62,098 bases of DNA, filler included, from Stramenopiles sp. TOSAG23-6 (GCA_900128565.1; 22 parts of 22 records of this genome joined end to end with filler, not necessarily neighbours in it); one strand, 5' to 3'; counted from the first letter of the whole stretch, positions 5,752 to 56,405 are shown. Program-made: numbers and translations. The notes: generated by a model from the letters alone, not told the origin.

Positions 5752-6968
5752 TTATTAACTTTATTACCTGATAAAAATCATCTTGAACAAAAAGTAAAAT
5801 ATGAAACATTGGAAGATTTGGAATATGTATGTTTTATTTTTTTTTTTTACAAAAAAATCGATTTTTTTTTTCGTACGCAATTTTGTACCTAACGAATTTT
5901 TTTTTTTTTTTTTTGAAATATTTTTCCAAAATACATTCAGATATAGAAAAAATACATCCAGAATGTATAGAACTAAGATTAGTATTACCAAAACCGATTA
6001 AAGGTGATTGTATACAATGGAATACTACTACTACTACTACTACTACAGACAATAGCCAGAAAAATACAACGCATAATGATTCAACATCTCGCTCACGACG
6101 TGGTAGAGGACTTGTCATTCATGCAGCAATGACTGGGCAAATGAACATTTCAAAACTTTCATCAAAAAATGTGTCTGAAATAAAAGTAAAAAACACAAAA
6201 AACACAAAAAACACAAAAAACACAAAACAAAATTCAAAAGTATTCTCTACAGTACCTCATTTCAACCCAGAGACTGATCTTTGGGCGTATCATAATAGTT
6301 TTGATAGTTTACATGAATCTTTATCAACAAAACATACTATTCCTATCCAAAGTGGAACAAACCTGAAACATATAAAGAGTGCAAGGGAACATGTCACTCA
6401 AGCTTTTGCACCTCATAACAATACAATAGAAGAAATAGAAGAAGATAATAAAGACGTTAGAAAGCCGTCAACAATACATGATCAATCTGTTTATTTTATG
6501 TCACGAAATGGAAATGTACTTTTTCATCATTCATTTCAAATGTATTTATTTTTGGTACGAAATTTTGTACCTCTACTATAATTTTGTTTATGATTTTGTT
6601 TTGTACCTTTCTAATACATTGACATATTTACATTGTTTTTACAATACATGTGGATCCATATAAACGCCCTAAAGGAGTAAAAGAAGTATCAAATGTCACT
6701 TCATTAGTAATGTATGTTTTTGTTTTTTTTCAATTTCGAAACAAAATTTTCATACGAAATTTTGTACCTAACAAATTTTTTGAATTTTTTTTTGAAATAT
6801 TTTTCCAAAATACATTCCCTGTTTTGGAATTGATAATGAAATAAGTAACGAAAAAACGACTACAAATATTCAAAAAACAAAAGTTTTAGGTGTATTACAA
6901 CTTTTATTATGTCCTGGTCGAGAAAGTTTTAGCCCTGAACAGATTTGTGCAGCAAAAATGTATGTTTT

Positions 6969-6999
<31 letters not shown>

Positions 7000-7772
7000 T
7001 TTTTTTCGAAAAAAAATACCAAACAATTTTTTTGTACCTAACAAATTGTACAAAAACAAAATATTCTTCATAGTATATGTGTGCACATTTATTATCTTTT
7101 GCACTCACTGCAAGAAATATAGCAATGAATTTATATAAACATCATGATGGGGATACAACAATGTTTTGCACTGATTTATCCAAGACAACAAGTGTGATGT
7201 TGGAAGCACATGACAAAATTACAAAATTATCAAATGAATATCGCATTCTTCAACAACAACGTGAATTAGATTTGGTACAGTATCAGAAAAATATACAAAA
7301 TATAACAAATAGACATCAACATGACAAAGTACACGTATCTGTTGAATCAAGTAAATTAAGAAGTTTATGTACTCGATGTATCTCAGACAATCATTTTATG
7401 TACGTTTTTTCTATATTTTTGTTTTTCTATATTTTTGTTTTTCTACATGTATTGAAAATTTGGTTTTGTTGTTTTTGGTATTAAACATTCAAAGCCTATA
7501 ATTTGGTTTTGTTGTTTTTGTTGTACTATGATTATATCCAATGATGTTTTTACTAATATATTTATATATGTATCATTATATTCACACAATACATGTCACA
7601 TACATTAAAACAAATCTTAGATAATTGTGATGACAAAAATCTGTTACATCTTTCAGAGGATCACATTGATGAAATACTTAGAATTGTGCATCGTGTTGAA
7701 GGATGGAAAGATCATGAAGATGAAGTTAAAAATATATGTGATTATTTAGAGACTTGGAAAAAAAAGAATTGA
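5752..7772 (+). CDS. GAF-domain/coiled-coil protein, 5'-partial; exons 5752-5826, 5937-6515, 6650-6711, 6816-6959, 7079-7399, 7595-7772
   Basis: All five GT..YAT excisions keep frame and build GAF-like VDP..TSLVIPCFG..VLGVLQLL..FSPEQ. Confidence 0.75.
5827..5936 (+). other. Family intron, GT..CAT
   Basis: Consensus; phase 0, EDLEY|SDIEK. Confidence 0.9.
6516..6649 (+). other. Diverged family intron, GT..CAT
   Basis: GTACTT..GGTACGAAATTTTGTACC..ACAATACAT; phase 0, RNGN|VDPY. Confidence 0.75.
6712..6815 (+). other. Family intron, GT..CAT
   Basis: Consensus; restores SLVIPCFG. Confidence 0.9.
6960..7078 (+). other. Family intron, GT..TAT
   Basis: In frame at TAT; using the AG ending at 7073 gives a frameshift and early TAG. 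Confidence 0.85.
7400..7594 (+). other. Long diverged family-like intron, GT..CAT
   Basis: GTACGT start, TACTAAT branch-like motif, CACAATACAT end; in frame. Confidence 0.75.
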
Positions 7773-7843
7773 TGAAAATATATATGTGATTATTTAGAGA
7801 CTTGGAAAAAAAAGAATTGAAAAGTAACTAGCTAATATGTACT

Positions 7844-8030: not shown

Positions 8031-8077
8031 TTACTCAAATATATTATACTTTTAATTATATATATAAAAAGACAAAT

Positions 8078-8387: not shown

Positions 8388-8595
8388 ATGTATTTTGGAA
8401 AAATATTTCAAAAAAAATCTAAAAAAATTGTTAGGTACAAANNNNNNNNNNNNNNNNNNNNNNNNNNNNNNNNNNNNNNNNNNNNTTAATTAATTAANNN
8501 NNNNNNNNNNNNNNNNNNNNNNNNNNNNNNNNNNNNNNNNNTTTGTACCTAACAAATTTAAGTTTTTTTTTTTGAAATATTTTTCCAAAATACAT

Positions 8596-9160
8596 TAAGC
8601 TTCCAGAATACGATCTCGATCATACAACGAATAAAAACAATAATACAAAACAAAAGGATAAAAATGATGGGAAATATTTTGTTGTGAAAGAAAGTCAACA
8701 TATTAGAATTAGGAGTCTTTTAATCTTAAGAGATAAAACACGAAAAACACATCGAAGTAATCAAAATGTTCATTTGGCTACTGAAAATAAATACAAATGT
8801 TCAAGTTCTAGAAGTAGCTGCCATCAAGAGTTTTCTAGGGTAAGACGAAGAAATGAAGGCAATACAAATAATATAAGCCAGAAAAAATCAAATGCTAATA
8901 AGAATGATTCAAATCCAAACGAGAATAATAATGGATATGTAACTGCAAATGTACTATTTGAGTCATGTATCTTTTATTTTTTTCAATTTCGAATTTATTT
9001 TTTTTTCGTAGGAAATTCCGTACCTAACAAATTTTACAAAACATTTTTTTTTCACAATACATGTATGTTAATTATGGTATTTATTATTGTTGTAATTTTT
9101 GCTATAATTCTTGTTATTCTTGGAGATTATACTACTTCATTCATTTCTTTTGGTTCTTAG
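8596..9160 (+). CDS. Unknown protein C-terminus with terminal TM helix (intron 8967-9062)
   Basis: Open frame after partial intron ending 8595; hydrophobic C-terminal segment; TAG stop. Confidence 0.6.
8967..9062 (+). other. Family intron, GT..CAT (96 nt, stop-free)
   Basis: GTATCT..TACCTAAC..CACAATACAT, CAT direct repeat at both junctions. Confidence 0.85.
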
Positions 9161-9386
9161 AATTATTATTGTTATTCTTGGAGATAAATGCAAATCATTT
9201 TACATGATAAAAATATAATAAGGGTCCAAAAAAAGTAAAGTTTTATATAATATCAAGAATTTATTAAATTTAGGATTCCCTAAAAATAATTTAAAATAAG
9301 ACGGTTCTGAACCATTGGTGTTGTTATACACTTCTATATAAAGTTCAAGCTTGCTCATGAGAAATGTTTTCATACAACTTTTACAC

Positions 9387-11230: not shown

Positions 11231-11385
11231 ATGTATTTTGGAAAAATATTTCAAAAAAAATCGTTAGGTACAAAATTTCGTACGANNNNNNNNNNNNNNN
11301 NNNNNNNNNNNNNNNNNNNNNNNNNNNNNTTAATTAATTAANNNNNNNNNNNNNNNNNNNNNNNNNNNNNNNNNNNNNNNNNNNN

Positions 11386-11957
11386 ACTTTAGCGATGGTG
11401 TACTTGTAGCTGAAATTTGTAAATTTTACTGTCCCAGATTGGTTGAGTTACACCATTATTCCGCAGCAAATTCAAAGAAACAAAAGCTATATAACTGGAA
11501 ACATTTACAGTCAAAAGTATTTAAACCTCTTGATTTCAAAAACGAAAAATCCCTTATTAATGCGGTTGTCAATTGCAAACACGGAGCCATAGAAAATGTT
11601 TTAATCAATCTTAAATCAAAACTTTTAACAAGAGTGAGCAGAAGTACACACCGGTGAGGTAACTTTAATAACTCCCCGCGGAAAGCAAGATCAATTAAGG
11701 ATTATGTGCGAGGTGACGTACCCCCTAGAATCTCTCATAGAATGATAGAAGATGAGTCAAAGAAGCAAAATGCTGTCAGTCGTGTATCTATTTTACAAAA
11801 GGAAATTGACACTGAAATAATTTTGGAAAAAGAACAAATCATTCACGATCTGAGAGAAACTATTCAAATATTAAACCTCAAAGTTAGAAAACTGGGACAG
11901 TTATGCCGTCTTAAAGATACAAAAATTGAGCAATTGATGGCACAACTTCAACAGTAA
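11386..11957 (+). CDS. SPEF1: SPEF1-like calponin-homology flagellar protein, 5'-partial, in-frame TGA at 11655-11657
   Basis: FSDGVLVAEI..PRLVELHHYSAANSKKQKLYNW; C-terminal EKEQIIHDLRETIQILNLKVRKL..KD..I coil in the same frame. Confidence 0.8.
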
Positions 11958-12172
11958 CTATTTATCTTTATTTTTCGAAATAAGAGCCAAAAAATAAATT
12001 TATTTTACGCTGGTTTCAAATTTTTTTTCGTACAATTTTATACCTAAACAATTAACTCTATATTGGTTTTTCCACAACTCCTTGGTCGTTCATTTGAATA
12101 GCTTTTACATCATTATTTTCCACGTCTCTCTCATTGTCTTTCTCAACATCAATTACTTGAATTGGATTAGGC

Positions 12173-14129
12173 TCACTCTCGTTTCACAAGAATATCAATT
12201 CGGAGTAAGCTATCTTCAAAATTTGAAGTAGTCGTTACATCGAATATAGAATTAAAACATCTAGACATGTATGGAAGGTATTCAAATGCAAAAAGTCTAC
12301 AGAATAATTCAAATTGAACTTTTGAACTTTCTTTGTATAATTTTTGTTTCGTTTGGGGAAGTGAGCTATATTCTATCAAAGTATTTACTTGAAATTGCAA
12401 CCACTTTTGAAAACATGAAGCCATAGAATCCCTAAGAAAGTATAAAGTACATAATCGCAGTTCATTAAATGAAGATAACATGTCATTGACAAGTTCTGCT
12501 AGAACACGAAATGTTAAAAATGACGTAGGAGCAGATATATCCACTGATACGATATCATTTTTCATATCAACTTGTTTCAAAATTTTAGCCCAAGAAAGTT
12601 TCGATATTCGTCCAAAAGAATAATTTGACAACATCTTTTGAAGAAGTATTGAAGACACATTTTGTTCAAACTTTTCACTGGCAGTCATCCAATGACTATT
12701 CATAAAATCCATAAATCGATTTTCAAACAAAGGGGACAAAATTCCTTGAAAATTCGCACCCGTTTGTGTCAAAGATGTATTTTGGAAAAATATTTCAAAA
12801 AAAATATTTTGAAAATTTGTTAGGTACAAAATTTACTATAAAAAAATAAATTCAAAATTGAAAAAAATAAAACGTACATGTTGCTAAATACATACTTTGT
12901 TCTATGACATTCGAAAATGCACTACCAGATGTAATTTTAGATAGATAATATTCCAACGTTTTCAAAAAAATATTTACCTGATTCGTCACCCAACGTCTTA
13001 GTTGAAAATCAACAAGTGAATCTGAGGTCTCATTATTAGAGTTAGGGTTTGAAATATTTACAAAAATGGCTTTGTATTGTGTAATAATTTCAAACCAATG
13101 CATTCGAAACTTTTCTATAATATCGAGTAAATATTTCGCAACAGCCTCTGAAGCTTTTGTACGACTCAGGTTGTCGACGTCAGGTACCAATACAGTTTGA
13201 ATAACTCCACGTAAATATTCCTCACGACAATTCAAAAATTCAAAGGATAATGATGACTTGACCATATTTTCTCTTTTTGAAGTAAATGTGTTTCGCGAAT
13301 TTTGCACATTGTTTTGTACTTGTCTATTTTTGTTTTCCTTATCTGTAGATATATTGCTATTTCCAATAATAGTAGAATCGTCAGTAGAATTATTCATTGT
13401 CGAACGGTAAAAATACAAATTAGTGAATTCTGAAAAATTGGATTGTGAAGAACTTTCGTTTTTTTCGTGTTTTTCGTTTTCCTCACGTAAAGGTTTCTTT
13501 TCTTGAGTTAAATTATATAAGGAAGTATTCTTATCGCATTGAGATAATTGATCTAAACGCTTTAAATATCCCACAATTTTGAAACACATGGGTAAATCAA
13601 TTTTGTTACACAAATGCCGTAGTAGTTGTTTTCTCATTAACTCTTTCGATGTATGCACTTCACCTACANNNNNNNNNNNNNNNNNNNNNNNNNNNNNNNN
13701 NNNNNNNNNNNNNNNNNNNNNNNNNNNNNNNNNNNNNATTGAATTGTCTTCATAGTTAGATTTCGATAACACAGGTGAAAGCATTTTATGACGTTTCTCA
13801 AGAATGTTGGCAAAAGAGACCAAATCTATTGCTTCTTTATATAAATTATTCCGAACACAAGTGTCCATAAGTTGAGGGACTTCAAGTAACTCAAGTAATT
13901 GAGTATGTTGCTGTAATGTCTTTTGGTTCTCCTCGTGGCTGCGAACTATTGAAACACCTAACTTTAGAAACGTATCTGCCTCGCTATTAATTTGAGGAAG
14001 TTCCGCTAAAATGTTGCCGAGCTTCTGAATACCAGACTGAGAAGCAACCTTTACGTCCTGCAAACAAGTATGATTTTCTATATAAAGTTTGTAATTTTTC
14101 AACAAGTCTAACAAATATACTTGAACCAA
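12173..14129 (-). CDS. COG8: Conserved oligomeric Golgi complex subunit 8 (Dor1), intron 12775-12877; true end may be the TAG near 12058 via a frameshift error
   Basis: LLELLEVPQLMDTCVRN; spliced junction gives QSMYLATSLTQTGANFQGIL, matching the COG8 QCMYFGLSFSRVGADFRG-type motif. Confidence 0.88.
12775..12877 (-). other. Family intron, GT..CAT
   Basis: 103-nt removal restores the COG8 motif without an indel; no AG after the branch motif; ACAT direct repeat. Confidence 0.93.
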
Positions 14130-14288
14130 NNNNNNNNNNNNNNNNNNNNNNNNNNNNNNNNNNNNNNNNNNNNTTAATTAATTAANNNNNNNNNNNNNNN
14201 NNNNNNNNNNNNNNNNNNNNNNNNNNNNNGTTAGGTACAAAATTTCGTACGAAAAATAAATTCGAAATTGAAAAAAAATAAAACGTAC

Positions 14289-15841
14289 ATCAGTCACCAT
14301 TTTAGTATGTAATGGATATTGATAATAAGATTTCTCTCTCTCGCGATTGGCATGCCACAATTTACATTGTGATTCTCCTTCAGTTTTACACAGTAACCAA
14401 ACACCACCCTGACCATCAGTCACCATTTTTGTATGAGATGGGTATTTGTAATACGACCGTTCATGATCACAATCTGCGTGCCACTATAAAGTAAAGGATA
14501 ACGATACAGCATTGACATATAAGTTACTTTTTACTAAAACATGAATAATAATAAATTATTGTTATAAATCATATTGATGACTTACTAGAGTCCATTGGCC
14601 ACCACCAACTGTGTTACAGAGTAACCAAACACCACCCTGACCGTCAGTAACCATTTTTGTTAAAGACGGGTATTTGTAGTACGACTGCTCGTTAGTACGA
14701 TTAGCGTGCCACTGTAAAGTAGAGGATAACGATACAGCATTGACATATAAGTTACTTTTTACTAAATCATGAATAATAATAAATTATTGTTATAAATCAC
14801 ATTGATGACGTACTAGAGTCCATTGGTCGCCTCCAACTGTGTTACACAGCAACCAAACACCACCCTGGCCATCAGTAACCATTTTTGTATTTCTTGGATA
14901 ATTGTAGTATGACTTTTCATTATTCTCGTTGGCGTGCCACTGTGTTGTAAAAAGTATAANAATGTTTGTATAAGATTTGTTAATTGTTTGTCGAAAAATG
15001 AAAACGATGTTATTTTTTTTGTTTAGGTACGAAATTTCGTACGAAAAACGAAAACAAAAAAATTATAATTGTTAACGAAACGTACAAGTGTCCATTGATC
15101 ATTTTCTCTATTAGAATTACAAAGTAACCAAACACCTCCTTCTCCATCAGTTACCATTTTCGTGTGTTGTGGATATTTGTAATGTGAGCTTTCTTTCTCG
15201 CGAGAAGCATGCCAAAGTGTGCACTGCGCGTCACTTCCAGTCTTACATAATAACCAAGCGTGTGGTGGATTCAATCGGCGTCGTTGACGTCTTGCTTGTG
15301 GTTCTTCACTGCGTTGGGGTGTTCTATGAGTCTGTGATAACACTATATTTGATGAAATAAGTCGACTTGGTGGAGTTGATGGGGTACTCGGCCTACTCGA
15401 GGTACTCGGTCTACTCGAGGTACTCGGTCTACTCGAGGTACTCGGTCTACTCGAGGTACTCGCAGCACGCTGAACTCGAGCTTCTTCTAAATGCGTTTGT
15501 ATACAAGATCTACATCGTCTGTTGTTGTGTGGCCTTGCCCATTGGTTACTACTATACCAAGCTCGGGGGAAAATACCACAGCATGATCGACAAGCTCGCA
15601 AATGAGTATTTGTGTTTGAAATTATATTTGGTTGCTGAACTGGTGAGGTACTATTTTCGGTGGTCGCGGTAATGGAACCAAGTTTTCCACCAAGCTTTGC
15701 AAAGTCTCGTTTACAGAGAACGTGCCCACAGGGTAAAGCAAAAACTGGTTTACATTCTTCCAAGCAAACGGGACAATCAGCCTTGACATATACTAATGTT
15801 CCACTTCGCGAACGCTTGCGACATTGCGGACAAGGAAACAT
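14289..15841 (-). CDS. RING-finger protein with Cys-rich segment and tandem WHAN..YP..TKMVTDG.GGVWLLC repeats, 3'-partial
   Basis: CPVCLEE..LPCGHVLC; repeats rejoined across introns 14940-15085, 14712-14813, 14484-14585. Confidence 0.75.
14484..14585 (-). other. Conventional GT-AG intron, not family
   Basis: GTAAGT..TTTATAG; QWTL|WHA in frame. Confidence 0.85.
14712..14813 (-). other. Conventional GT-AG intron, paralogue of 14484-14585
   Basis: GTACGT..TTTACAG; duplicated with the 228-bp repeat unit. Confidence 0.85.
14940..15085 (-). other. Family intron ending in CAG
   Basis: Has TTTCGTACGAAATTTCGTACCTAA core, ends TTTTACAACACAG; QWTL|WHAN. Confidence 0.8.
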
Positions 15842-15895
15842 TGTATATGCTATTGTCTGATAAGTGATAAGTATCAATGAAATAATGAAACGATA

Positions 15896-15968
15896 CAAAT
15901 CTTTTTGACCGCAAAAAAGAAATCTTTTTGACCGCAAAAAAGAAATCTTTTTGACCGCAAAAAAGAAA
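15896..15968. repeat. Three tandem ~23-bp repeats (AAATCTTTTTGACCGCAAAAAAG) between divergent genes
   Basis: Direct inspection. Confidence 0.85.
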
Positions 15969-16132
15969 CGGAAAACGAAAACGAGAATTGAATTGATAAT
16001 TGAATTAATTCGAAAGTTTTTCGTGTTTTCGTTTTTGAAACTTGTTTGATATCTGTTTTGACTAGCGTCCAAACATATTTACTAACGAGAGAGATAATAT
16101 ACCTTGATTTCATTTTTTGTTCAAAAAAAGAG

Positions 16133-16887
16133 ATGAAACCCATGGCAAATTTGTTGCTTTTTTGGACTATTTTTACATTATTTACCACTGTCAGATCAAT
16201 TGATTCGTGTATAAGTAAAATATCAAGCCGCTGGAAGGAAACTTTGGAAAAAACACCCACGAATTTCTGTACGTCAAAACACTTTCCAGATTATTATTCA
16301 AACAACGTTGATACGAAGCGCTTTATTCTTGGAGAAGACAATCAAACTTCAAAAGTTCAACACCGTAAGTTACTTGTTGTTGGAATTGCATCAGCCCGAA
16401 ATCATTTTCAGCAACGTATGGCCTTAAGAAAGGCGTGGAAGACTATAAAGGGAACTCGGTGGGAATCTCTGATTACGTTTCAATTTCTCATTGGTGCACA
16501 AAATAGCTTCTCGGATAAAGATAAAAGTGTTGAAGCAATGCTATTAAAGGAGAGTCAAACTCAAAGTGACATTTTATTTCTTCCTGTGTTTGATACATAC
16601 AAAAATGTAATTTTGAAAACGCTTCATTTTGCTGATAATACACTTTCAAATTTTGACTTTGATTTTTTTTTGAAAATGGATGACGATACTCTCCTTGATA
16701 TCCTCACACTTGCCCAAGAACTTGAGCAGCGTCTCTTAATATCTGTAGGACAAAACATATCGCGGGTATATCGTGGATTAACTTGGACGGGAAAACCAGT
16801 GCGCTCTAAGAAGCATAAGAATAGCCTCTCTTTACGAAGCTATCCCTTGGACGTTTTCATTCCTTACGCACACGGCGCTGCTTACAT
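16133..16887 (+). CDS. GT31 beta-1,3-galactosyltransferase-like, 3'-partial (family intron starts 16888)
   Basis: N-terminal TM, R.ALRKAW, DILFLPVFDTY.N..LKT, FFLKMDDD, YP...PYAHGAAY. Confidence 0.85.
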
Positions 16888-17344
16888 GTATGTTTTATTT
16901 TTTTTTCAATTTTGAATTTATTTTTCGTACGAAATTTTGTACCTAACAAATTTTAGTTTTTTNNNNNNNNNNNNNNNNNNNNNNNNNNNNNNNNNNNNNN
17001 NNNNNNTTAATTAATTAANNNNNNNNNNNNNNNNNNNNNNNNNNNNNNNNNNNNNNNNNNNNTGCTTGGCTGTGGGGTTAGGTACAAAATTATCTACGAA
17101 AAAAAAAAAAAAAACGGACAATTTCGCCGACGCCCAAAAATGCCACTTTCGCCTAAATGGTACGGGCTTATAGGAGCGATAAAAAAAAAAAACAATTTGG
17201 CCTACGAGTTTCACGGATCGGCGACGATCGGACTATTATTCCCTTGATCGGACGACTACGATATATATACGATCATTTATTAGTTGAGTTTTTTTAGGAA
17301 AATCCTTGTTCAGGACGTTCTCATATCCCTCATATAACAAGAAC

Positions 17345-19016: not shown

Positions 19017-19740
19017 TTAAACTTCATGTTTTACTGAAGGAGAAGCAATTGGAAGATACACTGTCGACGTAGGATTAGTCATTTCTGTAATTGGTTTAGT
19101 TTTATCCATGCCTTCAAAGTCATTTTTAGGAGTATTCCGAGACAAATTCCATCGTTTTGGAGTATTTTCAAACTCTACGTCTTTATTCCAAAACGAAAAT
19201 TTCTCTCGAATGAGATCCATTATAAAATTACAGTTATTTTTGTACACACCATAAATCATATGTTGTGAAAAAATATTTGAAATTGTTGTTTTGTTAGGTA
19301 CAAAATTTTCGAAATTCGATTTTGAATACGTAAATTCGAAATTCGATTTTGAATACGTAAATTCGAAATTCGATTTTGAATACGTACATGAATAAAGCGA
19401 AGCCTTGACCCACAAGAACAGTCTGAAGAATCACAGGTAACAAAATTGGTACTCCCCCCTTCATAACTTCACCACAGCCACATTTGCCATCTTGCCCTTC
19501 TATCCCAGGAGTAAGAACATGTGCTGGAATAAATATTTTTTTTGTAAAATTTGTTAGGTACGGAATTTCGTACGAAAAAAATCGAAATTGAAAAAAAATA
19601 AAACATACAGCATCACAACTATTGGCAGGCCATTTTGGATCTGGCTTTGAGCTTGTCTGACTTACTTCCGTTAAGTGAGTTTTCCAATTTGTCAAAAGGC
19701 AAGTGACCCAGTTAACTGCATCTTGTGTATAGTCATCTTC
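19017..19740 (-). CDS. Membrane protein C-terminal part; exons 19740-19609, 19518-19388, 19257-19017
   Basis: In-frame joins SCDA|VLTPG and ALF-M-IYGV; hydrophobic helix. Confidence 0.65.
19258..19387 (-). other. Family intron, GT..TAT, with internal 27-bp triplication
   Basis: GTACGT..(GTATTCAAAATCGAATTTCGAATTTAC)x~3..TACCTAAC..CACAACATAT. Confidence 0.8.
19519..19608 (-). other. Family intron, GT..CAT
   Basis: Upstream exon ends CT; the CAG 5 nt before the end gives frameshift and TAG. Confidence 0.85.
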
Positions 19741-19893: not shown

Positions 19894-22624
19894 CATGTAT
19901 TTTGGAAAAATATTTCAAAATTTTTTTTTTTTAGTTTCAAAAAAAAAAAAAAGTTTGTTAGGTACAAAATTTCGTATGAAAAATAAATTTAAAAAAAAAA
20001 AATAAAACATACATTAATTCGGATAGAAGATTTCGCTGTGTTAGTGCTGAAGGATAAAATATGTCGAACCCGGCACAAAGCGTAGCAATCGCTTCTCGCT
20101 GCATGCATTGTGTAGAATGAATACTTGATGTATCCCATTGACATGTATTTTGTAAAAATATTTCAATTTTTTTTTTTGGTTTGTTTGGTTTTTTGGTTAG
20201 TAAAAAAAAATTCTTTTCGTTTTCTATGAAAATTTACTATGAAAAAAAAAAAAAAATTGAAATAAAAAAAAAATAAAACATACATGCATTGTCAACAAAC
20301 AAATTTGAAGGAGTGTCTATATATTTTCCTTCTATGCTCATTGGAGAAGCAACAAGACGTCGTAATAGCTTATGTAGCGCGGGCAAAATATATTCTGAAT
20401 CTTTATTTTTTTTGATATCTTCAGAAAATGTTGATTTTTTTGCCGCATGCTTTAAATTGACACGCAAAAGTCTCATGCAAGACATGTATTTTGGAAAAAT
20501 ATTTCAAAAAAAAAAAAAAAAAATCTTTTAGTTTAGGAACAAAATTTCGTATGAAAAAAAAAAAAAATTTATAAAAAAAAAAAAAATTTTTAGGTAAAAA
20601 ATTTTTAAAAAAAAAAAAAAAAAATATTTACTAAAAAAAAAAAAAAAAACATACATTCTTCCAAAGGAAAACATCCTACATCGTTCTTAGATGAGACGTT
20701 TTTAGGGTTTTTAGAGTTTTTAGAGTTTTTAGGGGTTTTAGAGTTTCCTATATGTGTCGGTATGTTTTTCTTAGGTTCATTTGTCATTAAATTTTCAGAT
20801 GGAACATTTGATAAATTTGATGAATTTTCATAACATCCAAACTTAGATTCTTTCCAAAGGGAAACGACATGACGTTGAAGTGACCCTAACAATACTTCAT
20901 ACGGAAACGGAAACGATATACTACTTTTGTGCTCATCTCTACTCAATTTCTTCTTTTTAAAAGATTGTTTTTCATCAGATAATTTTTCAGAGTCATATTT
21001 GAAAGAATTGATTCTACGCAAATCTCGAGGCAAATCTAGCAATTTATTTTGAGCAGATAAAACTCTTTCTAGTAATTCTCTGAATAATGCTTTCAATGCA
21101 GTTGGATCAAAATCTGTTGTTTTATCCTTCATATCGCCCATAGTATGATTAAGCAAAGAACAAACTACGTAGTTTTGTGATAATTTATGTAACAAGGCAT
21201 GGAGTAGAGCAGAGTTTGGAGAAGCAGCTCGCATGTATTTTGGAAAAATATTTCAAAATTTTTTTTTTTTAGTTTCAAAAAAAAAAAAAAGTTTGTTAGG
21301 TACAAAATTTCGTATGAAAAATAAATTTAAAAAAAAAAAATAAAACATACATTAATTCGGATAGAAGATTTCGCTGTGTTAGTGCTGAAGGATAAAATAT
21401 GTCGAACCCGGCACAAAGCGTAGCAATCGCTTCTCGCTGCATGCATTGTGTAGAATGAATACTTGATGTATCCCATTGACATGTATTTTGTAAAAATATT
21501 TCAATTTTTTTTTTTGGTTTGTTTGGTTTTTTGGTTAGTAAAAAAAAATTCTTTTCGTTTTCTATGAAAATTTACTATGAAAAAAAAAAAAAAATTGAAA
21601 TAAAAAAAAAATAAAACATACATGCATTGTCAACAAACAAATTTGAAGGAGTGTCTATATATTTTCCTTCTATGCTCATTGGAGAAGCAACAAGACGTCG
21701 TAATAGCTTATGTAGCGCGGGCAAAATATATTCTGAATCTTTATTTTTTTTGATATCTTCAGAAAATGTTGATTTTTTTGCCGCATGCTTTAAATTGACA
21801 CGCAAAAGTCTCATGCAAGACATGTATTTTGGAAAAATATTTCAAAAAAAAAAAAAAAAAATCTTTTAGTTTAGGAACAAAATTTCGTATGAAAAAAAAA
21901 AAAAATTTATAAAAAAAAAAAAAATTTTTAGGTAAAAAATTTTTAAAAAAAAAAAAAAAAAATATTTACTAAAAAAAAAAAAAAAAACATACATTCTTCC
22001 AAAGGAAAACATCCTACATCGTTCTTAGATGAGACGTTTTTAGGGTTTTTAGAGTTTTTAGAGTTTTTAGGGGTTTTAGAGTTTCCTATATGTGTCGGTA
22101 TGTTTTTCTTAGGTTCATTTGTCATTAAATTTTCAGATGGAACATTTGATAAATTTGATGAATTTTCATAACATCCAAACTTAGATTCTTTCCAAAGGGA
22201 AACGACATGACGTTGAAGTGACCCTAACAATACTTCATACGGAAACGGAAACGATATACTACTTTTGTGCTCATCTCTACTCAATTTCTTCTTTTTAAAA
22301 GATTGTTTTTCATCAGATAATTTTTCAGAGTCATATTTGAAAGAATTGATTCTACGCAAATCTCGAGGCAAATCTAGCAATTTATTTTGAGCAGATAAAA
22401 CTCTTTCTAGTAATTCTCTGAATAATGCTTTCAATGCAGTTGGATCAAAATCTGTTGTTTTATCCTTCATATCGCCCATAGTATGATTAAGCAAAGAACA
22501 AACTACGTAGTTTTGTGATAATTTATGTAACAAGGCATGGAGTAGAGCAGAGTTTGGAGAAGCAGCTCGCATGTATTTTGGAAAAATATTTCAAAATTTT
22601 TTTTTTTTAGTTTCAAAAAAAAAA
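19894..22624. repeat. Exact 1338-bp tandem duplication, probable assembly loop through family introns
   Basis: 19894-21231 equals 21232-22569; junction intron 20484-20654 has two branch-like motifs and breaks frame. Confidence 0.85.
20655..21821 (-). CDS. Fragment of a large protein, possibly HERC/HECT-type E3 ligase; exons 21821-21622, 21480-21351, 21232-20655
   Basis: GT..CAT introns 21481-21621 and 21233-21350 join in frame; QREAIATLCAGFDIFYPS..RNLLSEL resembles giant E3 ligases. Confidence 0.4.
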
Positions 22625-31253: not shown

Positions 31254-32733
31254 ATGCACTTAGTTGTTGTATCGGAACGCCCACAAGACTTCTGATTACC
31301 TTCGGACGCAAGACATCCAACTTATCACCATGTATCATGGACAAATATTTGAAGTGTTTTTTGTTAGGTACAGAATTTGGTACAAAAACAATTAACTTGA
31401 AATTAAAATGATGAAAACATATATGACCACATTTTCCATACTCCCCATGTGTTTTGGAAGAATATTTCAAAAAAAAAATCGTTAGGTACAAAATTTCGTA
31501 CGAAAAATAAATACCCCAGGAGTATACATGACCAGATTCAGTGACTGCAAGGCTATGATATCTTCCTGCTAAGATATGGCGTATCCCACGAACATCTTCA
31601 ATTAGTTTTGGTAGCATTTCGTCAGATCTTCTGCCATGTCCTAATTGTCCGTAGTTACCATAGCCACAGGAATAGATTCTCCTAGATTCAGTGAGAAAAA
31701 GAGAATGGCTACCCCCTGCACTGATTTCCATGACTCTTTTCCTTTCTAAACATTCGACCAATTTAGGCTTCATTTGATGCGTTTGATCACCATGTCCGCT
31801 TTTCCCATATGAACCTGAACCCCAAGACCAAACCTTGCCATCGCGTGTTAAGGCGAGTGAGTGATGATCTCCTGCCGTGATGGACATAACACCTTTTTGT
31901 TCTAATGTTTTAATAACCATTGGTTTCTGTTGGTGGCTTTCATTTCCGTGTCCAAGTCTTCCTGAATCCCCACAACCAAACGAATATACAGAACCATTAG
32001 AAGCTAGAGCTAAACTATGAACGGCACCAGCAGAAACACTTACAATATTTACAAGTCCTTTCAAAGATTTAATTTCTTTTCCTTCATTCTCTCCAAGCTC
32101 CGAACCGTGACCTAAACGACCAAATCGACCAACACCAAAGGAACAGATTGACATTGAGTCCATCACAATGAGTACAAAATGGTCTACACCACTACCGCAC
32201 GCAAGTCTATTTTGTACAGAGGTCATCATTAAACGTGAAGTTAACTCCATATTACTCAGCCATTCACTCCAACTTCTTCGGGGTGTTTCTTGACGTCGCG
32301 CAGAAAGTTCCATATTTGCACGACCCTTTATTTTCCTGATATTTGAAACCTTTTTAATGGCATAAGCAGCCCTAAGCATACATGTTCGCTGTGTCAAACC
32401 AACTATCCGAGGAATCGCAACTGGGTGAAAGAAAGGTGATACAACGTCAACTGAAGAAAGATCCTTAGCACTTAAAAAAGACAAAGTCACAACAATTACG
32501 GAGTCTGGAATATCTAACAATGATAATTGTCGACGTTTTACCGATAATTTTGCAAATACAGAAGTATTACATACTTGGTCGAGACTACGTGAAAAATCTC
32601 GCCACACCTTGAAAAGACCAGAGAATGAGGGCAAGTTTTGTGGACTACTGTTCTCTTTGGGAAGACAGGAATTTAGTTGCACGAGGGCTTTACTTGCTGT
32701 ATCAATAGCTTCCAGTAATTTATTCCCATCCAT
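31254..32733 (-). CDS. F-box plus RCC1-repeat protein, 3'-partial
   Basis: F-box-like LLDIPDSVIVVTLSFL; RCC1 repeats SAGAVHSLAL..VYSFGCGDSGRLGHG. Confidence 0.85.
31330..31422 (-). other. Family intron, AT..CAT variant (93 nt, stop-free)
   Basis: Removal gives GKCGH|GD exactly as in the neighbouring RCC1 repeats; CAT direct repeat. Confidence 0.85.
31447..31512 (-). other. 5'-truncated family element inside an RCC1 repeat (66 nt, in frame)
   Basis: Palindrome, branch motif and 3' end present; GTATGT 5' segment missing. Confidence 0.7.
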
Positions 32734-42501: not shown

Positions 42502-43805
42502 NTCCGACGTCTCGCTCATAAATCCCGAGATGGATTTCATGAGTCTGTCCACATTTTGCTCGACGCCGGTGCGCAGCAGTGTGGTGATGGCAATGGTGGC
42601 GACATTGCGATTCGGGTCCGATATGAGATGTTCCAAATCAACGTTGCACGGCGCGACGGCGGTGGGGGACCTCAGAACGACACGGCTCAGCGTACGCACA
42701 GCTGCGTATCTCTGCACTGGCGAGTGGGAGCCCAGAAAATCCTGAAGAGTCCCAACCGCGGCAGCGATTTCTCGTGGCTGNNNNNNNNNNNNNNGGCGGC
42801 CTCGTACGCGACTGTGAAGTTTGAGCTTGAGAGTTGGTTGTGAAGGAAGCTGGACAAAAGTCGATCTGGTGTCTCCTGTCGACGAATGACCCGATCAACG
42901 CATCGGATGAGAAGACACTGAGCAAGAGGACCCTTCGGGGGCGACCGTGCAAGCTGTGCTGCGAGTTTTTTGATGGCCATTTGGTCGTATTGTTTGATTT
43001 TGAAGAGTAGCAGCAAGGCATGGAGCTGCACGGTCGGAGAAGGGTTGGTCAAGGCGACCTGTACCTCTTTGGTCCAGCGACGGATGGAGTCGGCGCCTTG
43101 GTCAAACAGGTAATTTCCAGCCAAAAGGGCGGCCGATACGACACTTGGGTCACGGTCGACTATAGCCTGCTTCATCAGGCGGTCAAACCCAGCCACCATG
43201 GAAGGGTCGAGGATCTTGGCCAAAACCCGAAGGGAATTGGCGCGGTAGCTGTCGACTTTCCCTGTCATGTCCTTAGCGAGGCTGTTGACCACCATCATGG
43301 CCTCTTCCGGCTTGGCGGGAAGGTCCTTCAGGGCCAGGTACACCATGCGACGAAGCTGCACGTCGCGCGAGTTGAAGAGCTTCGTGACGCTGAAAAAGAG
43401 ATTCGACACTTCGCGGTCGGTGAAAGATTCTCCCTGCATCATCAGGTGCTCGATCTTCGTGAGAACGTCGTAGCACTGACGCGAGTCGACGATTTTGTCG
43501 TTGAAGCACTTGGCCTCATGCACCACCGCATTCTTGGTCAAGTTCTCGAACGGCGAGGGCTCGAACTCTGGTGGGAGCGGCGCAAAGGTTGGTCAGAAAT
43601 AGGTCCTCGAGCGGTGCAAGAGCGTGACAGTATGCCCAGCACTTCGCGGTGCCGCCGCGACGCGCAACTCACCCTCCCCTNNNNNNNNNNNNNNNNNNNN
43701 NNNNNNNNNNNNNNNNNNNNNNNNNNNNNNNNNNNNNNNNNNNNNNNNNAACTCACCCTCCCCATCCTCTCCTTTGTATTTCCCCGTGTCCATCCGCCCA
43801 TCCAT
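42502..43805 (-). CDS. COPG: Coatomer gamma subunit, N-terminal part (canonical intron 43568-43672), GC-rich scaffold
   Basis: [66 protein letters not shown] intron. Confidence 0.92.
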
Positions 43806-44041
43806 GATGTCACCGCCGCAGCGCGGGATCGCCAGTGCCCGGGCCGCTTACAGAGCTCTTTTGCCTTCTCCAGAGCGAAGAAATTTATTTTTTCGGTCGT
43901 AGCGCTAAAAATTGGCCAATTGGCCAAGGGCCAAGGGAGAGGTCAAAAGCCCTTTCAGCTGTGGTGTGGCGCACGCGTGCTGACGTGTTCCCGGGCCCTG
44001 GTCGGTCACACGCGGGAGCGGGGCCGGATTTTGGCGTCAAT

Positions 44042-44714
44042 ATGATGGAGCAGGTGGAGCAGTTGCTCAAAGAGATCCCTCCCATTACTCGAACGTACAT
44101 GATCGCGGCGTTTGCGACGACGACGGCGTGCTCATTGGAGCTCGTGTCTCCGTACCGCCTGTATTACAGCAGCACACTCATCTTTCAGAAGCTGGAGCTG
44201 TGGCGGCTAGCTACAAACTTTTGTTTCTTTGGCCAGAACTTCCCGTTGGACTTTCTGTTCCACATGTTCTTTCTCGTCCGCTATAGCCGCGCGCTCGAGG
44301 AGAACTCCTCTGTTTAGCCTTCAGTTCCTTGGGTCGTCTCTCACGTTCATGATGGTATATCTATGGGGCCGCCGAAACCCAGCAGCGCAGATGAATTTCC
44401 TCGGCATCTGGCCTTTTACGGGACCTTACCTGCCATGGTTACTCTTCTCATTTTCGCTGGTCCTAGGAGGTGTCTTCAAGGTCGACTTCCTTGGGATTAT
44501 TGTGGGTCATTTGTATTATTTTCTTGAAGACGTTTACCCACGTCTGATTCACTCGCGGTACCGGCTCTTGGAAACGCCTGCGCTAATAGAGAGGATGTTT
44601 GCATCGGACGATAGGGGTGATTTTTTGCTCGAGGATGAAGATGAGGATGAGAATGCGGCGGATGGCGAAGATGGACTAGATGCAGATGCTCCAGGGGGCT
44701 TTCGGGTTGAGTAG
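44042..44714 (+). CDS. DERL: Derlin (Der1-like), with internal deletion/frameshift near 44310
   Basis: IPPITRTY, ELWRL.TNF.FFG, RYSRALEE, LGSSLTFMMVY.WGRRNP, GHLYYFLEDVYP. Confidence 0.88.
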
Positions 44715-45322
44715 CACTTCACTTTAATCACTTCAGTTTAATCACTTCAGTTTAATCACTTCAGTTAATTCTAGAAAAAAAATGCGATGTTGTACATTGA
44801 CAATATTGTATTGACAAATTGTTGCGGAATCTTAGCTTGACACAGCTTATCGCAGCTACGAGCGCTTCGCAGCACAAGATGCCGATGTGTTGTGTTACTT
44901 GTGCTGTTCCTTGTGATGATGATCGTAGTGTTGCTCGTGGTGATGTTGTATCTTGTACTGTCATTGTCGTTTCTGCTACACTGCACATGATAAATGCACG
45001 TATGACATGCACCACGCGCATGACATTTACTATATGTATCACACACGACACAGACTCGTCGTAAGTTGAAACCGAATGTTGAAACCGAATGTAATGTAGT
45101 ACAGTATATTCAAAGGACATTAGCGTACTGCTTCCAAAATTCGACTGATTTTTCATACCGTTTTCTGTCAATGGGTTTCCCAGAACCACCTTCCCCCAGA
45201 GGCAGTGCGTTGCGCATTATTGNNNNNNNNNNNNNNNNNNNNNNNNNNNNNNNNNNNNNNNNNNNNTTAATTAATTAANNNNNNNNNNNNNNNNNNNNNN
45301 NNNNNNNNNNNNNNNNNNNNNN

Positions 45323-48231: not shown

Positions 48232-49961
48232 ATGCAGCTTCTCTTGAATTGTCTAGTAACTCTTTATTTTGTACTTCTGCTTTGTGTAAAGCATCTGCAG
48301 CTATTGATGCATCAATTTTACCCTGCATTGTAACATTTTCTAATAATTCATCGATTTCATTTTTTGACTCCGCTAAAGCCGCAGCAGCTGTTGATGTATT
48401 GTAAAAAGAAAAGTTTAGTTAAAAAAATCGTTAGGTACGAAACTTCGTATGAAAAAATAAATTAGAAATTCATATCAAACGTACATGCATCTTTGAAATT
48501 TTGATTGGCAACTTTTAATTCCTGTTCTAATTGTACGATTTGAGCAGCAGCGATTGTATCTTTCTGAAAATGAATTTGTCTTTCTTCTTCAATCTCCTTT
48601 TTAATAGAGTTTGCGTTATTTTCTACGGAACTCATCGCGTCTTTTAAATCATTTATAGTTTTGTTTATCAATTTCATTTCTTCTAGATGTTGCTCTTCTT
48701 TACTCTCATATTGAGATATACGTTTATTCTGATTTTTTTCCATTAATTTGGTCATTTCCATTTTGGAATGCATTTCATTTTCTGAAGATAATAATTTTGT
48801 CTTTGTTGTTTCAAGACATGGATTATGAAAAAATATTAAAAAAAAAATTTAAAAAAAATTGTTAGGTACAAAATTTCGTACGAAAAAAAAATTTAGATAA
48901 AAAATTGAAATGAAAACGTACATTTTTCTGAAGCAGAAAGTTTTGTTTGAAATTCTACAATTTCCATTTCAAATGTAGAGGCCATTTTTTTTTCACTTTC
49001 CATTTGATGTTGAATTATTTCTTCAGTCAATATTTTATTCTTTTTTTCAATATCTATGCGTTGTTGGATTATTTCTTCAGTCAATATTTTATTCTTCTCC
49101 TCAAGAGTTTGAATCATTTTCCCAGTGTCTACATTTTTTGAATTTTTTGAAGTAATAAAAGTTGAAATATTTTGTTGATTTTTCAGAATTTCAGTAAATG
49201 GTTTCCGGGTATCATGTTTACTTGGCGAAAGCCATACAGTTTCATGAATATTTCTATTTGTCAGTTCATCAGATAATCGAATAATTTGTTCTTTTTGTTG
49301 TTTACGTATTGTGAAAAAATATTTCAAAAACAAATTCGTTAGGTACGAAAATTTCGTATAAAAAAAAACTTAAATTAGAAATTCATATAAAACATACACA
49401 TAACACATGTAAATCTTCCGCGTTTTCACTAATGGTAGTCGGAGAATCGTCAGTCTGTTGGTTAATTTTGTCAGTGCTTGCTTCAGGGTTACTCAAACTT
49501 TGATTACTTAATTCTTTTATTTTTTCCCGAAGTTTTTGTTCAGTTACAAGAGCATCTTTTAGCATTGTACTTCTAAGTTTAAGTTTTACAATATTCGCAT
49601 TATTTTCATAAACTAATGACGTCGTTTTCTTCTTCCAAGATGATAGATCATTCTGCAGTGAGGCAATTTCAGAAACGTCGTATGGTTTATGTTCCTCGCA
49701 GGAAACCTCGCAGTTTTCACCTAGTGCAACTTTTAAGCGTTGCATTTCTAATTGCTTTTCAGCAAAAAAGGCTTGATATTTGCGCAATACCTCAACTTGT
49801 TGTAGCTGTAAATCTGCAGCCAACTCTTTATATGCCTGAGCCTCTGCACTTTTGTCTAGCTCTTCTTCATTAGTTGAATCGAGAAAGGCAAAACGGAAAT
49901 TACTTACTACATTTTGTATGCCACCAAGCTTGTCTAACCAAGTAGTAGATTTCAACGACAT
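48232..49961 (-). CDS. Long coiled-coil protein; exons 49961-49398, 49303-48922, 48817-48485, 48393-48232
   Basis: Three family introns join four ORFs in frame. Confidence 0.75.
48394..48484 (-). other. Family intron, GT..CAT
   Basis: Phase 1, KDA-S-TAAA. Confidence 0.88.
48818..48921 (-). other. Family intron, GT..CAT
   Basis: Phase 1, SEK-C-LETTK. Confidence 0.88.
49304..49397 (-). other. Family intron, GT..CGT variant
   Basis: Exon ends TGT, intron ends ATACGT; phase 0, in frame. Confidence 0.8.
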
Positions 49962-53581: not shown

Positions 53582-53833
53582 ATGTATTGTGAAAAAATAT
53601 TTTACATTGTTTTTCGTTAGGTACAAAATTTCGTACGAAAAAAAAATCGAATTTGAAAAAAAATAAANNNNNNNNNNNNNNNNNNNNNNNNNNNNNNNNN
53701 NNNNNNNNNNNTTAATTAATTAANNNNNNNNNNNNNNNNNNNNNNNNNNNNNNNNNNNNNNNNNNNNTACGAAATTTTGTACCTAACAAATTTTTTCAAA
53801 TTTTTTTTTTTGAAATATTTTTTCATAATCCAT

Positions 53834-54947
53834 TAAGCGTATCCCAAAAGCGAGTAGAGGTCCAGTGGCTATGAGAAATAAAATGAATCACCGAAGTACA
53901 CTCACAGATATCGGTCTTGGTGGTGAAAGTCTTGCACGACATGCTTATCGACATTCTGCGGGTGCGTTCAAACCGCCACCACAGAGCAAAGTTGATGTAT
54001 GTTTTATTTTTTTTTAAATTTTTTTTTATAGGAAATTTTGTACCTAATTTTTTTTTTTTTTTTAAATTTTAAAAATTTTTTTTTTTATAGGAAGCAGGAA
54101 TAAAATTATCTGGCTCAAGTTTGATTATGTATGTTTTGTTTTTCATTCACCCTAACCCTAACCCTAACCCTAACCCTAACTCTTTTTTTTTTTTGGTTTT
54201 TTCGTACGAAATTTTGTACCTAACAAAAAAAATTCTGAAATTTTTTTATAGTATATGTATCCTACTGGCTATTGTGTTCCTGGAAAAAACTCATTCCGAA
54301 CGAAAGGAGTACATGTACGTGTTTATTATGAATTTTTTATCTAATTTTTTTTTCATACGAAATTTTGTACCTAACGATTTTTTTTTCCAACCAAAAAAAA
54401 AAAAATATTTTTTCACAGTATAGGAAGAACATATGGCAAAGTGTGGTGAAGATCACATAAAGTTTATAGAAACAGGTCTCGGTAGTGATATTGACGCTTT
54501 TGAAGGTCAATTTCGAGGGCGTAATCCGTATGTTTTTAATAGAAATTTTTATTAGAAATTTTTATTAGAAATTTTTTTTTGAAATTTTGAAAATTTTTTT
54601 TTTTCACAACTAACAAAAAAAAAAAAAAAAAAAAAAAAAAAGAAAATTTTTCAAAAAATACATGGATGCAATACAGTCACCTGCAGCAAAATGTTCATTA
54701 CCATTCCCTGATGTCTCAACACAAGCCAAATTACACGAAAATCCTTATGTTAGACAGAAAGGAAAATCTCGATCTCAATTAGCTGAAAAAATGTTAAAGT
54801 CTAAAATAAAATTTGGCGACAAAGGCGAAAATAATGAAGACTGCGAACGAAAATTATTTACTCATTGTAAAGGGGCTAGAGAAAAAGGAGCAGCGCATCA
54901 AAGTCAGATAACAAAGTGTTACATGTACGTTTTTAATTTTTTTAGGA

Positions 54948-54978: not shown

Positions 54979-56405
54979 ATTTTTTTTTTTTTTTTTTTTG
55001 GGGTGTTGAATTTTAAAAAAGTGAAAAAATTAAAAAAAAAATTTTGTACTTATAAAAAAAAAAGAAAGTTCAAAATATTTCCAAACATTACATGGGCGGT
55101 CATATTACTTCTAGAGAAGCTAAAGTTCTCGCAGCACAGAGAAATCGAAGTATTAATAATCATATTGTAGCTACAAAGGCAAATAGCGGTGATCAAATCA
55201 TTTTTGATGTATGTTTTATTTTTTTTTTTTTTTTACCAAAAAAAAAAAAAANNNNNNNNNNNNNNNNNNNNNNNNNNNNNNNNNNNNNNNNNNNNNNNNN
55301 NNNNNNNNNNNNNNNNNNNNNNNNNNNNNNNNNNNNNNNAAAAAATAAAAAAAAATATTTTTTCACAATACACGCAAAAGAAGAGAGTCCGATGAACATT
55401 GCCAAGAGTGGTTTACGTATAACAGGTAAACAAGCAAGAAGTCAAATATCAGAATCAATGTTTGGTGGTGAAGTTTTTCCCCATGAATATGTATGTTTTA
55501 TTTTTTTTTTACAAAAAAATCGAAATTTTTTTTTTTTGGTAAAAAAATTTTGTACCTAACAATTTTATTTCTTTTTTTTTTGAAATATTTTTCTACAATA
55601 TATAAAACATTTGCACACGAATTTGAAAATAAAATTACCAAGGGAATGAAACAAGCACCAGCAGATCATTATGCAATCAAACATAATGTTGTGTTTGGAG
55701 ATGATGGAGCACGTGAATCAGAAGGTTTTCGGTGGCGGAAAAAACATGTATGTTTTTTTTTTTTTTTTTTTTTTTTGGCTTAAAATTTTTGGCCAAAAAG
55801 TTTTTTTTTTTTTTTTTTTAATTTTTTTTTTTTTTTTTTTTTCAAAACATTTAGTATACCAAGGCTAATAATCAAAAAAAGACAAACTATTTTTCACAAT
55901 ACATGCTTCTCATGATAAATCTGTTGCTTTTGAGGATAAGTTACAAGAAAGAGGCTTAAAAACAGGAGCTGGTATGGGTTTAGTTGATCACATTCGATTC
56001 GGCACGGCATGTACGTTTCCATTTCATTTTTTTTTTTTTTTTTATTTTTTTTTTTTTCGAAATTTTNNNNNNNNNNNNNNNNNNNNNNNNNNNNNNNNNN
56101 NNNNNNNNNNNNNNNNNNNNNNNNAAAAAAAAAAAATATGTTTTCACAATACATGGGGTCTAAATGCGGAAGAGTTGAAAGATATTGCACAAAGAAGTGG
56201 AAAACGAAGATTTGTACAAGATAATTTGGGAAAAAAAGTGATTGCACAACCTGATGTAATTAGAGTTAAAGTGACAGTGCCACCTGGACCATTAGGTGTG
56301 ACCTTTGCTCCAGCTACTGATTTAGGCGATGGCGCAGTTATAAAAGAGTTTAGTCATGTGAATGATATTATGGGACCATTGCAATCACATCCAAGAATGA
56401 CAAGT
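53834..56405 (+). CDS. Intron-dense gene fragment (10 exons) ending in a PDZ-like domain
   Basis: Introns 53997-54090, 54129-54256, 54315-54423, 54528-54663, 54925-55093, 55209-55373, 55491-55603, 55748-55904, 56011-56154 give one open frame; VTVPPGPLGVTF. Confidence 0.75.
54149..54180. repeat. Interstitial telomeric repeat (CCCTAA)5 inside a family intron
   Basis: Direct inspection. Confidence 0.9.
54315..54423 (+). other. Family intron, GT..TAG at the consensus position
   Basis: TTTCACAGTATAG aligns with TTTCACAATACAT; first CAG (54418) gives a stop. Confidence 0.85.
54528..54663 (+). other. Family intron, GT..CAT, register-fixing copy
   Basis: Exon ends CC, so no AT-AC reading is possible; in frame RN-P-DAIQ. 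Confidence 0.8.

Follow-up and report, generated by a model that had tools for sequence, protein, structure and literature searches.

Introner-like elements with a GTAYGT donor and a mostly non-AG 3' end in a marine, stramenopile-like protist

The locus and its repeated introns

Positions 54129-54423 hold two successive introns of one gene, separated by a short exon, and both belong to a family of repeated introns with copies across the whole stretch of DNA that was analysed (hereafter the window; 62,098 nt, filler included). Copies of the family lie in importin-alpha, RCC1-like, galactosyltransferase and methyltransferase genes as well as in others, and every copy examined is in the sense orientation within an open reading frame. 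The main features are collected in Table 1. The telomere-like repeat within the first of the two introns (54150-54180) may be the cause of several weak run hits (share 0.07, many organisms).

Table 1. Features of the gene at 54129-54423 and of selected family introns elsewhere in the window, with positions counted from the first letter of the window
Feature	Position	Strand	Basis
Intron 2 of the gene, a family member with GTATGT donor and 3' end ...TATAGTATAT (GT..AT), 128 nt	54129..54256	+	Sequence, alignment, frame, RNA piece
Telomere-like (CCCTAA)5 insert inside intron 2	54150..54180	+	Insertion relative to other copies
Conserved core of intron 2 with CTAAC branch-like box, A 34 nt from 3' end	54208..54224	+	Core match
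Bypassed AG after T tract (TTTTTTTATAG), 5 nt before the junction	54250..54251	+	Use gives stops in the next exon
Exon between introns 2 and 3, 58 nt	54257..54314	+	RNA and frame
Intron 3 of the gene, a family member with GTACGT donor and 3' end CACAGTATAG (GT..AG at the family end position), 109 nt	54315..54423	+	RNA join, frame
Conserved core of intron 3 with CTAAC box, A 50 nt from 3' end	54359..54375	+	Core match
Bypassed AG (TTTTTTCACAG), 5 nt upstream of the AG used	54417..54418	+	Sequence, RNA, frame
Family-ended intron with CC 5' flank	54528..54663	+	X1 record 1 and X6 record 22 pieces reach 54527/54528
Family intron, no AG near its end (…CAATATAT)	55491..55603	+	RNA joint and sequence
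Family intron, bypassed AG ends at 7073 (CATAGTATAT)	6960..7078	+	Frame: score 54 at consensus versus 20 at shift -5
Family intron, bypassed AG ends at 19524 (CCAGCACAT), 5' flank CT, not AT	19519..19608	-	Frame: 61 versus 17
Family intron, 5' flank and last two bases both GT	49304..49397	-	Frame class 0: 138 codons versus 15 and 31

The window consists of 22 contig pieces of ~2.7 kb each, arranged in order of falling length and chained by 21 linkers (N44-TTAATTAATTAA-N44), so that adjoining pieces are not neighbours in the genome. The assembly is fragmented, and its host is a marine, stramenopile-like protist. Searches with the importin-alpha exon retrieved stramenopile relatives (bicosoecid, Incisomonas, pelagophyte, brown algae and diatoms) at 41-49% identity, with a best hit of 62%, and the RNA runs containing the stretch are seawater metatranscriptomes only. 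GC content is ~25-37% across the window, except for one piece (42503-45222) at 41-47%, which carries an adaptin-N (coatomer-gamma-like) gene and may represent either foreign DNA or simply an outlier in composition. Exact duplications occur within single pieces, both inverted (338-1338 versus 1340-2340 and 1-338 versus 2411-2748, in piece 1-2748) and tandem (period 1338, in 19894-22624); these look like amplification or assembly chimeras rather than biology, and suggest a low-quality amplified assembly.

The 16-nt core of the family, which was taken from the region of the finding (54129-54423), has 44 matches with at most 2 mismatches in the 62 kb, compared with 0.27 expected, and none of 100 shuffles reached 44. 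At least 17 of these 44 matches lie within ~100 nt of a linker, a crowding at contig ends which indicates that the repeat breaks the assembly. Family members are ~87-196 nt long, and an alignment of 18 complete copies (MAFFT) resolves three blocks: ATGTAYGTTTT at the left end, a central block that closes with GTACCTAAC, and a right block that closes with AATACAT. The central block carries the CTAAC box, in columns that are invariant in 18 of 18 copies, and is the best-conserved block of the element. An Rfam search of the window gave 0 hits, no transposase or longer partner element was found among the 10 ORFs scanned against protein families, and a 20-mer of the core had 0 hits in metagenome collections. 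The 16-mer core had 118 metagenome and 28 viral single matches, and all 146 loci were chance matches, none with the family's flanking motifs. A search for a longer protein match with exon 1 of the spliced transcript found none.

The 5' end of the family is strict. Positions +1 to +6 of the donor read GTAYGT (G in 37/38, T in 38/38, A in 38/38, Y in 38/38, G in 37/38 and T in 38/38 copies), with the GTACGT form in 12 of the 38, and the two bases before the donor are A in 34/38 and T in 37/38. One copy (31422-31330) has ATATGT in place of GTATGT, and its frame and the RCC1 repeat pattern are kept nonetheless. Canonical U2-type features are thus present at the 5' end (a GT donor with an extended consensus) and also upstream of the acceptor, in the form of a branch-like box and a pyrimidine tract: a CTAA[CA] box occurs in 28 of the 30 ends examined, with a median distance of 37 nt between its A and the 3' end (for the A of CTAAC, 34-50 nt in all but one of 28 copies), and a T tract follows the box.

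The canonical resemblance ends at the 3' terminus, where the AG of a U2-type GT-AG intron is lacking. In an ungapped tally of 35 ends, A occupies position -9 in 34, -7 in 34, -4 in 33 and -2 in 34, and position -3 is a pyrimidine throughout (C in 29, T in 6). Position -1 is T in 33 of 35 (G and C once each), so that most copies are without any AG acceptor; among 28 copies the last two bases are AT in 27 and AG in one. The first exon base is G in 24 of 35. The ends of the element form terminal inverted repeats (85.7% of cells complementary over 9 end pairs), and of the 27 introns with both ends, 21 by a count made by eye repeat their 5' flank dinucleotide as their last two bases (AT/AT in 20, GT/GT in one). 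The AT flanking repeat could alternatively be read as part of the inverted repeat. The sole non-AT matched flank pair is that of the minus-strand copy at 49304-49397, where the acceptor set by frame is ...ACGT, with no A at -2. This anatomy looks like that of an introner or MITE-derived intron, a non-autonomous DNA transposon working as an intron, and the simplest reading is that the element is removed from the RNA together with one copy of a 2-nt target duplication.

Reading frames and RNA contigs at the family end

A reading of the sequence alone had reported that in four copies an AG ends exactly 5 nt before the consensus end and that its use leads to a frameshift and a stop, while the downstream end keeps the frame. 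Both observations hold. The upstream AGs end at 7073, 19524 (minus strand), 54251 and 54418, compared with family ends at 7078, 19519, 54256 and 54423, and position -6 is G in exactly these four of the 35 copies, so that the window has no fifth case. With exons joined by coordinates, the consensus end leaves the frame open in all four copies, and the upstream AG brings stops within 8 to 34 codons of the junction in all four. Each upstream AG consists of a T tract and YAG, like the canonical acceptors ending at 54090, 14712 and 14940. Three of the four copies have the derived ending AGTATA(T/G) in common and probably represent one sub-lineage, which would mean that the four AGs are not independent oddities.

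Across 22 introns, a test of shift classes found the consensus register best in 16 and tied in two, and another class best in four, one of these exceptions being the RNA-proven intron 54315-54423. The shift-class test replaced a longest-ORF phase test, which was misleading because the T-rich introns are often open and the exons are short. In a second set of frames, 49397-49304 and 55748-55904 clearly fell into class 0, 54528-54663 and 14813-14712 gave ties or near ties, and the introns at 7400 and 54925 fit. A TTCAG lying 4 nt downstream of 5936 is ignored as well; it falls into the wrong frame class. Two copies are off frame with consensus ends, namely 20654-20484 (with a copy at 21822-21992), which needs a shift of -1 or +2, and the 5'-truncated copy 31514-31447 in an RCC1-like repeat, which needs -2 or +1; an error in the assembly, exonisation or splicing out of register may lie behind these misfits, and at 31447-31514 the RNA could also be read straight through, as 66 nt are open there.

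Canonical GT-AG introns are present in the same genes (14813-14712, 15085-14940 and 53997-54090), and where the right block of the element has been lost a nearby AG is used (53997-54090, 15085-14940 and 9783-9683). Since introns with AG are spliced in this organism, AG is readable, and the non-AG end is a property of the element; the skipping of the upstream AGs is then a consequence of the family's non-AG, element-defined acceptor. In the importin-alpha gene, the minus-strand copy at 9683-9783 is without its right block, and its frame calls for an AG acceptor and for a donor (GTGTAT) 2 nt upstream of the usual G. The minus-strand region 14560-15090 encodes tandem protein repeats (…QWTL|WHAN…), each with an intron at the same position, of which 15085-14940 holds the family core and the others are unrelated GT-AG introns (14813-14712, and one with a GTAAGT donor near 14576).

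The RNA evidence comes from Logan contigs of four metatranscriptome runs, 90-99% identical to the window (min_likeness 90) and some of them at a depth of 2-4, which were placed on one contig piece only and cover two of the four copies with an upstream AG (54129-54256 and 54315-54423). Such contigs hide minor isoforms and may derive from relatives without the insertion. At 54315-54423, X6 record 22 joins 54314 directly to 54424 (letters 107/106), so that the TAG ending at 54423 is used and the AG at 54418 is passed, and a piece of X1 record 1 begins exactly at 54424. The evidence at 54129-54256 is indirect: the left piece of X6 record 22 begins at 54254, with a further 38 letters in the record, which fits a joint 54128|54257 and does not fit 54128|54252, the start at 54254 being explained by the recurrence of the exon-end TAT at 54254-54256. 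This joint and the one at 54527|54664 were derived from piece ends and letter counts, as the joint listing is dominated by false joints between family copies. In X1 record 1, 92 letters lie between 53997 and 54424 where 95 are expected, an unexplained in-frame deficit of 3 nt in exon 2 plus exon 3.

Family ends without a competing AG were also joined in RNA. The joint 55486>55600 skips the 113 nt of 55491-55603 in X1, X3 and X6 with an ambiguity of 4 nt and no AG nearby, and X1 record 4 joins 56007 directly to 56152, across 56011-56154, with an ambiguity of 3 nt. At 54528-54663, X1 record 1 has 81 letters left, which by their number and by a 'from_end 27' entry at 54718 match 54664-54744, and an AG between the CTAAC box and the intron end is ignored in this RNA-supported splicing. 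At 55209-55373, which ends ...ACAC, X1 and X3 each have five letters that found no place, an observation that, like the deficit in X1 record 1, speaks against the present reading of the joints. X2 record 11 (54660-54909) starts at 54660 (ACAT) with 13 unplaced letters, as would be expected if exon 3 ran straight into exon 5 or if an intron end were retained. The summed depth of family-core RNA at 53768-53858, 54314-54404 and 55497-55587 is 2,000-17,000 in X1 and X2 versus 0-108 in X3 and X6, while exon depths are similar across these runs and X2 and X6 represent one sample; unspliced RNA, stable excised introns or DNA carry-over are possible sources of the excess.

The frames of all four copies and the RNA at two of them bear out the sequence-only reading in that the upstream AGs are passed over and the acceptor lies at a fixed place, the aligned 3' end of the family. 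Choice of the first AG after the branch point is itself a simplified rule, since AGs that lie close together are known to compete. It is conceivable that a considerable fraction of transcripts is cut at the upstream AG and that their frameshifted products are degraded, so that contigs show the productive form only. All four upstream AGs look like good acceptors (T tract and YAG), contigs drop rare variants, and the coverage extends to two of the four copies. The contigs seen, however, fit the downstream site only, and G at -6 (4/35) is no rarer than other variable sites (e.g., T at -3, 6/35), which gives no sign of selection against it. We regard substantial use of the upstream AG as rather improbable.

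The register of the cut raises a separate alternative, in which the chemical ends are AT...AC, two bases to the left, form the classical A...C terminal pair and are handled by a minor-type or an AT-AC-tolerant major spliceosome, to which the internal AG would be irrelevant. This accords with the AT flank in 34 of 38 copies, with the mostly AC bases at -4/-3 (A in 33/35, C in 29/35), with the ATATGT copy that keeps its frame, and with the GT/GT copy 49304-49397, which would end ...AC like the rest. Because the flanks are identical in most copies, the mRNA there is the same in either register (hence the ambiguities of 3-4 nt), and RNA cannot tell GT..AT from AT..AC. Two copies with unequal flanks, on the other hand, both show the right-hand register in RNA. 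The exon keeps its CC at 54528-54663, a copy whose flank permits GT..AT (or TA..TG) and excludes AT..AC, and at 54315-54423 the exon keeps its AT and the intron ends in AG. An AT...AC reading would also place the conserved GTAYGT 2 nt off the cut and turn five copies into AT-AT and two into AT-CC introns, and we give it little credence. We consider it probable instead that 54129-54423 holds two adjacent members of a high-copy, transposon-derived intron family which are spliced at the end of the element, with the upstream AG bypassed.

Candidate modes of 3' site recognition

Under the preferred reading, an element with the left end GTAYGTTTT and the right end AATAC plus two bases would leave the transcript with one copy of the flanking dinucleotide, and the intron would then read GT...AT, or more rarely end in ...AC, ...GT or ...AG. 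Such excision would restore the reading frame as it was before insertion, and only copies spliced in this way would be expected to persist in coding exons. An A-to-G change at -6 would have created the T tract and YAG 5 nt upstream in four copies, a site that would go unused. As regards the type of spliceosome, the branch adenosine and the manner in which the 3' site is read, we infer that the major (U2-type) spliceosome is the likely agent, that the yeast-like GTAYGT donor would fix the 5' cut, and that branching would occur at the CTAAC box, at its median of 37 nt upstream of the 3' end and ahead of the T tract. The second step would then take the 3' site by the terminal block (A at -9, -7, -4 and -2, and Y at -3) rather than by the first AG, and any base at -1 would be tolerated.

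A U12-type intron was considered and rejected. The donor does not match RTATCCTT (+5 is G in 37/38 and +6 is T in 38/38), and no TTCCTTRAC-type box lies 10-26 nt from the 3' end, the CTAAC box being 34-50 nt away and a T tract being present. RTATCCTT is not enriched in the window either (8 matches versus 3.8 expected, with 6 of 100 shuffles reaching 8).

Two explanations for the fixed position of the acceptor had been proposed from the sequence, the first being measurement from the AAATATTT motif. A ruler of this kind proves unneeded, as 8 of 35 copies do without the motif and still end at the position common to the family; among the copies without it, 52102-52007 and 48484-48394 are frame-consistent and 54528-54663 and 56011-56154 are RNA-supported. 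Among the 35 copies, the distance between the start of the AATATT hexamer and the junction is 20 nt in 24, 19 nt in two and 21 nt in one, the hexamer being absent in 8; such constancy is what common descent without indels would be expected to produce. The variable distance from CTAAC to the end likewise means that no fixed ruler runs from the CTAAC box. The constant feature is the terminal block, with its A at -9 directly behind the T tract. The transposon anatomy, which the sequence-only reading did not name, with its inverted-repeat ends and 2-nt flanking repeat, itself requires that the junction lie exactly at the end of the element.

The second proposal, that pairing of the two ends fixes the acceptor, stood as to the complementarity of the ends and failed as to support from covariation or energy. 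In its full form, AUGUAU at one end of the intron would pair with AUACAU at the other, joining the sites, setting the 3' cut and masking the upstream AG. Sliding the partner lowers the proportion of paired cells given above to 23-57%, 5 of 8 copies have the helix in their minimum-energy fold, and in 19608-19519 a different helix, of 5 bp and formed with the 5' junction, covers the AG (z = -3.69). The covariation score of the end pairing is nevertheless 0.099 against a shuffled mean of 0.108, with 359 of 500 shuffles as high, RNAalifold predicts 0 pairs on the family, and the single folds of 6 of 8 copies are no better than shuffles (z near 0). Donors of the GTACGT form (12/38) have no matching change at the 3' end, the CC-flank copy 54528-54663 loses two outer pairs and still fits splicing at the family end, and the helix would also hide the 5' site from U1. 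Pairing of the ends is, in our estimation, a very unlikely determinant of the 3' site.

Another explanation would take the near-invariant A at -9 as the branch point, with the 3' site at a fixed short distance from it, as in minor or Trichomonas/Giardia introns, so that an AG at -6 would be only 3 nt away and unreachable. Besides the A itself (34/35), C at -10 (28/35) and T at -12 (30/35) would suit such a branch, which would follow directly on a T tract ending 9-12 nt from the junction in 28 of 35 copies. It would account both for the bypass of the AG and for the tolerance of any last base, and the variable distance from CTAAC to the end (34-50 nt in 27/28 copies) is in keeping with it. Shared descent, however, gives a constant distance in any case, and CTAAC is the best-conserved block of the element (18/18) and stands at a normal distance before the T tract. 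A branch at -9, although the chief competing mechanism, seems unlikely.

More speculatively, the spliceosome of this marine, stramenopile-like lineage may pick the 3' site without reading the terminal dinucleotide at all, either through a short ruler from the A at -9 or through recognition of the terminal block. GT..AT, GT..AC and GT..GT introns would then be set by the transposon end and the target duplication, and a T tract with YAG 5 nt upstream or 4 nt downstream would be ignored, while GT-AG introns would still be spliced in the same genes. We put this forward tentatively, as a possibility that is on the whole doubtful.

Relation to known transposon-derived and non-canonical introns

Transposon-derived introns are described in several eukaryotes. 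The introners of Micromonas pusilla and Aureococcus anophagefferens are presented in passages of two papers as DNA-transposon introns with many near-identical short copies, inverted-repeat ends and a target-site duplication (PMC11282704, PMC7789003). The present family is like them in that the element brings one splice site with it while the second arises at the duplication (PMC11282704, PMC7789003), and unlike them, as they appear in those passages with canonical GT-AG ends, in that its 3' site is AT, with T at -1 in 33 of 35 copies, and a nearby AG is ignored. The MITE-derived introns of the tunicate Fritillaria borealis, according to the parts of the sources that treat them, have inverted repeats, a target-site duplication and non-AG 3' ends (AC, AT), and are spliced by an adapted major spliceosome (PMC11282704, PMC13326754, 10.1101/2025.08.15.670264). 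The combination of transposon origin, inverted repeats, target-site duplication and a non-AG 3' end is common to both; the 5' end in F. borealis is also described there as non-canonical (AG-AC, AG-AT, with GT-AG rare), whereas the present family keeps a strict GTAYGT donor and is non-canonical at the acceptor alone.

In the parasitic dinoflagellate Amoebophrya (strains A25 and A120), another marine protist with repeated non-canonical introns, the relevant passages describe introners with inverted repeats of 8-20 nt and direct repeats of 3-5 nt overlapping the borders, and a hairpin is proposed to join the exon ends (PMC7789003). Those introns are reported to have no dominant dinucleotide and a splice position that varies relative to the hairpin, whereas the borders here are uniform, the repeat is of 2 nt and a hairpin is unsupported. 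Euglenid non-conventional introns, in the excerpts that concern them, have non-GT-AG borders and ends brought together by RNA structure (PMC3935182, PMC12501133); in contrast, the 5' border here is conventional and the structure is without covariation or energy support. The structure-defined type of euglenids and Amoebophrya has variability at both borders, and the uniform 5' border sets the present family apart from it.

The U12-type introns of Physarum polycephalum, as portrayed in part of the corresponding preprint, are thought to have been gained en masse through a transposon with a TA target, and some are GT-AT (10.1101/2020.10.12.336362). A short, fixed stretch separates their 3' site from the branch (10.1101/2020.10.12.336362), as it would here if the A at -9 were the branch point. 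In that same account, however, the donors are RTATCYTT and a TTTGA branch lies 10-12 nt from the end, neither of which is present in this family.

Transposon-derived non-canonical introns are thus already known. Searches of the main texts of the literature brought up neither GT-AT introners in stramenopiles nor a strict GTAYGT donor combined with an AT acceptor that bypasses a canonical AG, and the passages retrieved from PMC5778133 and PMC9903769 make no mention of non-canonical introns.

Gene prediction that insists on an AG acceptor will go wrong for most genes of this organism, an expectation that agrees with the absence of a near-identical protein for the importin-alpha exon among the hits cited above. 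Bursts of intron gain are foremost explained by introns born from transposons, and a strict donor together with a non-AG acceptor at the end of the element would show an invader imposing a 3' splice site of its own on a spliceosome that elsewhere relies on AG. Those four copies in which a good AG stands 5 nt upstream amount to natural competition experiments on 3' site choice, with the potential to show whether scanning, distance or sequence governs the second step in a non-model eukaryote.
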